From a virus (lineage: Duplodnaviria; Heunggongvirae; Uroviricota; Caudoviricetes): 64,000 bases of DNA. Made by a program: the position numbers and the translations under genes. Under the pieces are notes generated by a model. That model ran no database searches. It was not told the DNA's origin and saw nothing but the letters and a program-made list of their open reading frames with translations. Shown here in pieces: positions 48,426 to 49,202 of this stretch (the first letter of the stretch is position 1; each line of letters starts with the position of its first letter). The stretch is from IMG/VR virus record IMGVR_UViG_2880412407_000011, one strand, 5' to 3'.

Positions 48426-48887
48426 TGTTTTGTTACGAAGGTGTTACTGGTAACGTTAAGGTAATTTAACAAAGAGTCAGTTCCGGACTTTATAGTGTGC
48501 TCAGTTCATGGCCAAAAACGATTTCTGTGATAAATATTTTGAATATTATTTACAGGTAAATGGAGTGGGGCACATGGATAGAAATATTACAATAGAGTAT
48601 GAAGTATATGCCCGTATTGTATGGGCAGAGAAGGCAAAACATGGTAATTCCGTGTGTTGCCATGATACCTGACTGGCAGAATTGTTGTTTGGTTTTGAGT
48701 ATATAGTCAGCGTCTTTTGTTCGGTAATTGCTCTTTCAATTAAAATGCCAGATATGATTTGCTTTTCTTTGTTGTTTAGTTTTTTTGTATATTATTTTTA
48801 TTGTTTTTATATAATTAGTTTTTTATTGTTGTCTTATTAAGGACGGTAAATTCAGGATGGCAGTCTGTAGATAAACGGAGGTTACTT

Positions 48888-49202
48888 ATGCTACATGATC
48901 ACCTGGCAGAATGTCTGGAGAAAAAAGGACTGTACCGGAGAGCAGCTGAACGATGGGCAAAAGTGATGGTACAGCTAAGTGATGACCAGAAAAGAAAAGT
49001 GGCGGCACAGAAACGAGCAGAGTGTTTGCGTAAGGCGCGCCGGACTCCGGTTTCACCGGTGAACCTGACCGAAATAAAACAAGCGGTCAACAGACTACAT
49101 TCTGAGTTGGGAATGGGATTTGAAGAGCGGCGGGTATTCCGACGATATAAAGGGACAGGAGAACAGAATACGTCCGGAAACGCGCGGTCAAAAAAATGCT
49201 AA
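48888..49202 (+). CDS. PerC/Pch-family transcriptional activator-like protein (tentative)
   Basis: 104 aa; EKKGLYRRAAERW motif is the kind of signature I associate with PerC-family proteins; preceded by ~400 bp very AT-rich DNA. Confidence 0.4.
   Translation: MLHDHLAECLEKKGLYRRAAERWAKVMVQLSDDQKRKVAAQKRAECLRKARRTPVSPVNLTEIKQAVNRLHSELGMGFEERRVFRRYKGTGEQNTSGNARSKKC

Follow-up and report, generated by a model that had tools for sequence, protein, structure and literature searches.

The gene studied here lies in a 64-kb stretch of DNA that was analyzed as a whole (the window), between the Rz spanin gene at the end of a lambdoid prophage lysis cassette and the phage cohesive-end site. It begins with ATG and encodes a product of 104 aa (Table 1). 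The Rz1 lipoprotein ORF is embedded in Rz on the upstream side; downstream, a convergent small gene of the YlcI/YnfO family (DUF3950) is followed by the 12-mer GGGCGGCGACCT, the lambda cohesive end, and by Nu1. The first-pass annotation had described a 104-aa ORF with a PerC-type motif at this place, located between Rz and cos and preceded by AT-rich DNA, and all of these features are borne out: the motif EKKGLYRRAAERW occupies residues 11-23, in the conserved helical region at the N terminus of the PerC domain, the flanking genes are those named, and the DNA ahead of the ORF is poor in G+C, as described below.

Table 1. Positions in the window of pchB, its neighbors and other features of the prophage
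Feature	Position	Strand	Basis
Rz spanin gene, end of lysis cassette, upstream boundary	47952-48425	+	Pfam Phage_lysis, 158.4 bits
Rz1 lipoprotein ORF, embedded in Rz	48178-48363		ORF list
Rz-pch intergenic region, AT-rich, presumed promoter/leader, candidate H-NS target	48426-48887	+	Composition
Small upstream ORF, 54 aa	48508-48672	+	ORF list; 46 aa at the Sakai pchA/B/C loci
Shine-Dalgarno sequence GGAGG, 6 nt before ATG	48877-48881	+	Read from sequence
pchB allele, group-1 Pch, 104-aa PerC-family transcriptional activator	48888-49202, stop codon included	+	ORF list, Pfam, alignment
EKKGLYRRAAERW motif, residues 11-23	48918-48956	+	Translation
Bidirectional intrinsic-terminator-like A-run/hairpin/T-run, AAAAAGCGAC-tttagtg-GTCGCTTTTT	49239-49265	both	Folding
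YlcI/YnfO-family (DUF3950) small gene, convergent	49284-49520	-	Pfam PF13132, 66.5 bits; NCBIfam NF041551, 34.4 bits; RefSeq orthologue
cosN cohesive-end 12-mer GGGCGGCGACCT	49707-49718	+	Exact match
Nu1, after cosN, downstream boundary of moron region	49894-50439		Pfam Phage_Nu1, 303 bits
DicF sRNA gene, early-left operon, upstream of dicB, candidate post-transcriptional activator of pch	30450-30501	-	Rfam RF00039
Integrase of the pch prophage	23128-24423		

The Pfam PerC profile (PF06069) matches the 104-aa product at 148.8 bits (E 5.4e-44), the curated gathering cut-off being 22.6 bits, and residues 1-89 align with positions 1-89 of the 90 in the profile. Alignment to the three reference genes of E. 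coli O157:H7 Sakai, pchA (ECs_1091, prophage Sp4), pchB (ECs_2182, Sp11) and pchC (ECs_2737, Sp14), shows that the coding sequence is identical to pchB at 315 of 315 nucleotides, while the product differs by a single residue from PchA (L6V, nt +16 being C rather than G) and likewise by one from PchC (V58M). The membership of the PerC family that had been tentatively proposed, with a profile search and an alignment to PchA, PchB and PchC as checks, is thus confirmed by both. The exact protein, WP_001302717.1, occurs in RefSeq genomes of both O157:H7 and O121:H19 and on at least 1000 contigs; RefSeq and UniRef label it 'PerC family' or 'PchABC family transcriptional regulator', the latter being its UniRef name. 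A tblastn search of the plasmid of enteropathogenic E. coli (EPEC) E2348/69 (NC_011603.1) aligned residues 2-88 with PerC, the founding member of the family, at 47.1% identity (E 1e-17), and tblastn found no second pch copy within the 64-kb window. Nothing was found that contradicts the identification, and we conclude that by its sequence the ORF is pchB, a prophage-borne PerC-family LEE regulator of enterohemorrhagic E. coli (EHEC).

The N-terminal part of the protein has wider relatives. Residues 1 to about 50 (4-56; window 48888-49050) also match the PHROG 'transcriptional activator' families 10396, 1324, 2608 and 868, the last three at E values of 6e-8 to 3e-4, and the NCBIfam model ANR_neg_reg (AraC negative regulator) gives a sub-threshold match (E 0.046, 13.6 bits, cut-off 32). 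Together these similarities hint at a helical module common to small phage and virulence regulators. A sequence search of the PDB with the protein returned no match up to E 1, so that its mechanism is considered here without guidance from a solved structure. A single-sequence AlphaFold2 model (mean pLDDT 50.5, pTM 0.31) contains five helices and is too poor for fold comparison.

The 462 bp between Rz and pchB have a G+C content of 33.3%, against 51.9% for the window, and an equally low value is reached in 0.35% of 462-nt segments; the last 208 bp before the start codon (48680-48887), at 27.9%, equal the minimum among all segments of that length. From base composition, silencing of this DNA by H-NS is plausible; ChIP data on H-NS exist for Sakai (PMC4764244). 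Compared with the Sakai pchB locus, the region carries a 1-nt deletion in an A-run (around 48655) and one substitution, and the pch locus of O121:H19 strain 16-9255 lacks about 38 nt of a T-rich tract (window ~48778-48815), roughly 75-110 nt upstream of the start. Such indels among close relatives indicate that the presumed regulatory region is polymorphic. In the alignment, the ~120 bp immediately 5' of the Shine-Dalgarno sequence (SD) are clearly unlike between the pchA/pchC type and the type shared by pchB and the window.

The small ORF within this region lacks an SD and carries no RefSeq annotation. Its 46-aa Sakai form gives a full-length match to phrog_2157 (E 1e-37), and the window version is longer because the 1-nt deletion shifts the frame at its 3' end. 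Between the pchC and pchB loci the ORF has accumulated seven nonsynonymous changes and one synonymous change, which suggests that coding constraint is probably absent and that this is probably not a constrained coding gene.

A plus-strand scan upstream of pch gave no match to the sigma-70 consensus, and a plus-strand terminator scan found no terminator-like site from Rz to pch. Given this position directly after Rz, late-operon transcripts may read through into pch on prophage induction, and the published rise of group-1 pch expression in the SOS response (PMC6265319) fits such an arrangement. Downstream, the hairpin flanked by A- and T-runs has predicted folding energies of -14.7 kcal/mol on the plus strand and -11.9 kcal/mol on the minus strand and is identical at the pchA, pchB and pchC loci; it probably ends transcription of both pch and the convergent YlcI/YnfO-family gene. 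The consensus terminator scan did not pick it up, probably because the A/T runs lengthen the stem. We count the intact SD and this hairpin, as expression signals, in support of the reading favored below.

The surrounding prophage closely resembles Sp11. Over 25.9 kb (32083-57926) its identity to Sp11 is 98.8%. The order holin, YdfR, lysozyme, antirepressor, Rz, pch, Nu1 is common to the window and the Sakai pchB locus, which also share their coding sequence, their flanking genes and near-identical upstream DNA. Sakai differs in its host background, O157:H7 rather than O121:H19-like, the best match of the whole window being O121:H19 Shiga-toxigenic E. coli (STEC) chromosomes. The layout Rz-pch-Nu1/cos is also that of Sakai pchC. 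We read pchB as a 'moron' that entered the prophage between its lysis genes and cos. Sakai pchA and pchC likewise encode 104 aa, 103 of them identical to the window product, with the same SD, the same terminator and the same place after Rz; PchC is distinguished by M58, and PchA by V6 (G at nt +16) together with C rather than T at -7. In Sp4, moreover, the block from the lysis genes to pchA is inverted between IS elements.

The pch prophage extends from int and xis, near 23-26 kb, to tail genes at 64 kb. An IS629-like element of 1310 bp (24693-26002), which shares 95.6% identity with Sakai IS629 and is an extra insertion relative to Sp11, interrupts its xis and makes the prophage probably excision-defective. 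The element contains an ALIL frameshift pseudoknot at 25551-25667 and is followed directly by IS600 at about 26012-27168; O121:H19 strain 16-9255 has IS600 only.

The first ~20 kb of the window are the late region, from portal to tail fiber, of a second, adjacent lambdoid prophage. This region is followed by a further IS600 (Rfam IS009 RNA match at 19561-19759), a pin-like recombinase and ydfK, and then by the integrase of the pch prophage, an order that places two prophages in tandem.

PchA, PchB and PchC are the EHEC counterparts of PerC, and full LEE expression needs them (PMC4456613, PMC6265319). The LEE1/ler promoter is directly activated by PchA and PchB, and loss of both genes gives the phenotype of a ler deletion (PMC13012123); in PMC4456613 and PMC13012123, activation of LEE1/ler and of adherence by the two proteins in Sakai is credited to Iyoda & Watanabe 2004 and Honda 2009. 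For Pch to activate LEE1, the promoter has to be under repression by H-NS and related proteins, whereas DNA binding by Pch does not depend on H-NS/StpA. Pch lowers the occupancy of H-NS/StpA, at LEE1 among other places, and this effect was seen in vivo as well as with reconstituted components (PMC4764244). H-NS binding regions hold 88% of the Pch binding regions, which are spread over many loci, have the lowest G+C among the classes compared and, within H-NS regions, lie where G+C is low (PMC4764244). LrhA activates transcription of both pchA and pchB (PMC4456613, PMC13012123), and the ECs2182 transcript rose 3.2-fold into stationary phase on a microarray on which cross-hybridization with pchA/pchC is possible (PMC2241611).

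We are highly confident that the ORF is pchB of an Sp11-like lambdoid prophage in a LEE-positive Shiga-toxigenic E. coli, carried as a moron and encoding a product that would activate LEE1. Activation of LEE1, DNA binding and displacement of H-NS have been demonstrated in published work on the identical or near-identical protein. On this model, the PerC-family product would bind AT-rich sequence in the LEE1 (ler) promoter and in further virulence loci of horizontal origin. At these sites it would displace or remodel the H-NS/StpA silencing complex, RNA polymerase could then transcribe ler, and Ler would de-repress the remainder of the LEE type III secretion island together with non-LEE effectors. 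The gene itself may be kept silent by H-NS on its own upstream DNA, could additionally be transcribed by late-operon read-through when the prophage is induced, and may have its translation enhanced by the DicF RNA of the same prophage, as for pchA.

Two other regulators of the LEE offer useful comparisons. PerC of the EPEC EAF plasmid (E2348/69 pMAR2, NC_011603.1) belongs to the same Pfam family and is a reported direct activator of LEE1/ler, but its gene lies on a plasmid, in the perABC operon, and the protein is shorter, ending ~15 residues before the C terminus of Pch. E. coli K-12 expresses the EPEC LEE without PerC, whereas EHEC LEE1 requires pch (PMC4764244). Ler, the LEE1-encoded H-NS paralogue, resembles Pch in lifting H-NS silencing from AT-rich virulence loci of horizontal origin (PMC4764244), although it is an H-NS-family protein unrelated to Pch in sequence; Pch comes before Ler in the cascade, and the regions that it binds are shorter and poorer in G+C (PMC4764244).

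The LEE is absent from the window itself. O121:H19 STEC are eae/LEE-positive, and from this background and the best-matching genomes we infer that the LEE is present in the host; a literature search pairing O121:H19 with the LEE returned no paper. Among 5426 complete E. coli genomes, the 871-bp pch region was found in 672, with a median of three copies, and those among the matches listed were all O157:H7, O145:H28 or O121:H19 type strains. The copy number raises the question of whether the window gene contributes at all. It might be present yet redundant or silent in this strain, a remnant of a decayed prophage that adds little to LEE expression beside other group-1 copies, and the interrupted xis with its adjoining IS600 and the ~38-nt deletion in the T-rich tract of O121 strain 16-9255, in a polymorphic regulatory region, could be read in the same way. 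We consider this improbable: the ORF, its SD and its terminator are intact and identical to those of the Sakai gene, prophage decay would leave a moron with its own expression signals unaffected, and the ler-like phenotype of the pchA pchB double deletion (PMC13012123) points the same way.

The distribution of pch also bears on what the gene has been selected for. Its primary role could be a phage function, such as countering H-NS on the AT-rich prophage or modulating late genes, with LEE activation as a by-product of generic H-NS antagonism. Such a role would suit the place of pch as a late-operon gene next to Rz, from which no predicted terminator separates it, its induction with the SOS response (PMC6265319), the PHROG matches of its N-terminal 50 residues and the coincidence of most Pch regions with H-NS regions over many loci (PMC4764244). 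Phage genomes, however, tell against it, since group-1 Pch is encoded by one of 50,697 phage records, a 1570-bp fragment (OR845833.1), which makes group-1 pch essentially a resident-prophage feature. The ler gene with the LEE1 promoter was found in 696 genomes, close to the pch count, which fits an association with host virulence, the two sets being compared by size, with some accessions on both lists. Furthermore, PchA does not affect H-NS binding at gadE (PMC4764244), so the antagonism is not generic, and we regard a primary phage role as distinctly unlikely. Finally, the PerC family includes group-2/3 proteins of the PchD/PchE type, which lack LEE activation and act on curli or flagella, and EHEC has PerC homologues with other roles (PMC6265319, PMC7369912), but the 100% identity to PchB in the alignment, the group-1 length of 104 aa and the group-1 genomic position rule out such an identity for the window gene.

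Group-1 pch is common in EHEC prophages yet essentially unseen in sequenced free phage genomes.

With the assignment to pchB as the preferred reading, we turn to its possible control by DicF. That the same prophage encodes this sRNA, as the first-pass annotation had noted, proved correct: the match to RF00039 scores 75 bits (gathering score 48), and dicB is annotated beside DicF in the orthologous O121 prophage. The accompanying claim, that DicF controls pch in EHEC, stands for pchA, through reviews of Melson & Kendall 2019, and is not documented for pchB; among the papers that could be searched, none mentions both DicF and pchB. According to those reviews, pchA mRNA sequesters its SD by means of an anti-SD inside the coding sequence, and DicF, which is made under low oxygen, pairs at this anti-SD, leaving the ribosome-binding site free (PMC7769764, PMC7873438, PMC9438474). 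Control by DicF has thus been demonstrated for pchA only, and by analogy it is plausible for the window allele. The pchA, pchB and pchC coding sequences are identical in the alignment from +17 to +171, so any DicF site in that stretch is conserved in the window allele.

The alleles do differ next to this stretch: at +16 (48903) the window has C against G in pchA, and at -7 it has T against C. The +16 C, present in pchB, pchC and the window allele, creates ACCU, which is complementary to the SD sequence AGGU (48881-48882 region). In thermodynamic predictions for the segment from -45 to +75, the SD AGGU of the pchB/pchC type pairs with ACCU at +14 to +17 at moderate probability (unpaired probabilities of 0.05-0.54), whereas that of pchA pairs more firmly with UCUGG at +27 to +31 (0.04-0.14 for four of the five bases). 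The predicted SD partner therefore differs between the paralogues through the C/G difference at +16, together with T/C at -7. The best DicF:pch duplex reached -27.3 kcal/mol, a value attained by 26 of 100 shuffled DicF sequences, and we accordingly rejected the DicF:pch cofold and duplex models, with their large loops, as evidence either way. We offer as speculation, itself rather unlikely, that dicF and pch on one prophage would let a single lysogenization deliver an oxygen-responsive LEE activator module, and that the paralogues may differ in their dependence on DicF, the SD of the pchB/pchC type being predicted to be held less tightly than that of pchA.

The DicF copies themselves vary. The window copy has G for A at nt 12 and nt 38 relative to the Sp4 copy and also differs at nt 1 and nt 39, so the copies are not identical inside the target-pairing region. 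Both the window prophage and Sp4, the pchA prophage, match DicF; in Sakai Sp14, the pchC prophage, dicB is annotated (~27400-27900) with no DicF at the Rfam gathering score. Canonical dicF may therefore not be carried by every pch prophage.

Published work already covers the gene and its family, its place between Rz and cos, and the way it acts; the finding is therefore not new, and the identification brings no new biology, the control of pchB-type alleles by DicF being the only question on which it touches. Pch stands at the top of the cascade that switches on attaching-and-effacing virulence in EHEC, and the correct naming of pchB marks this prophage as virulence-relevant in an O121:H19-like background, which is less studied than O157:H7.
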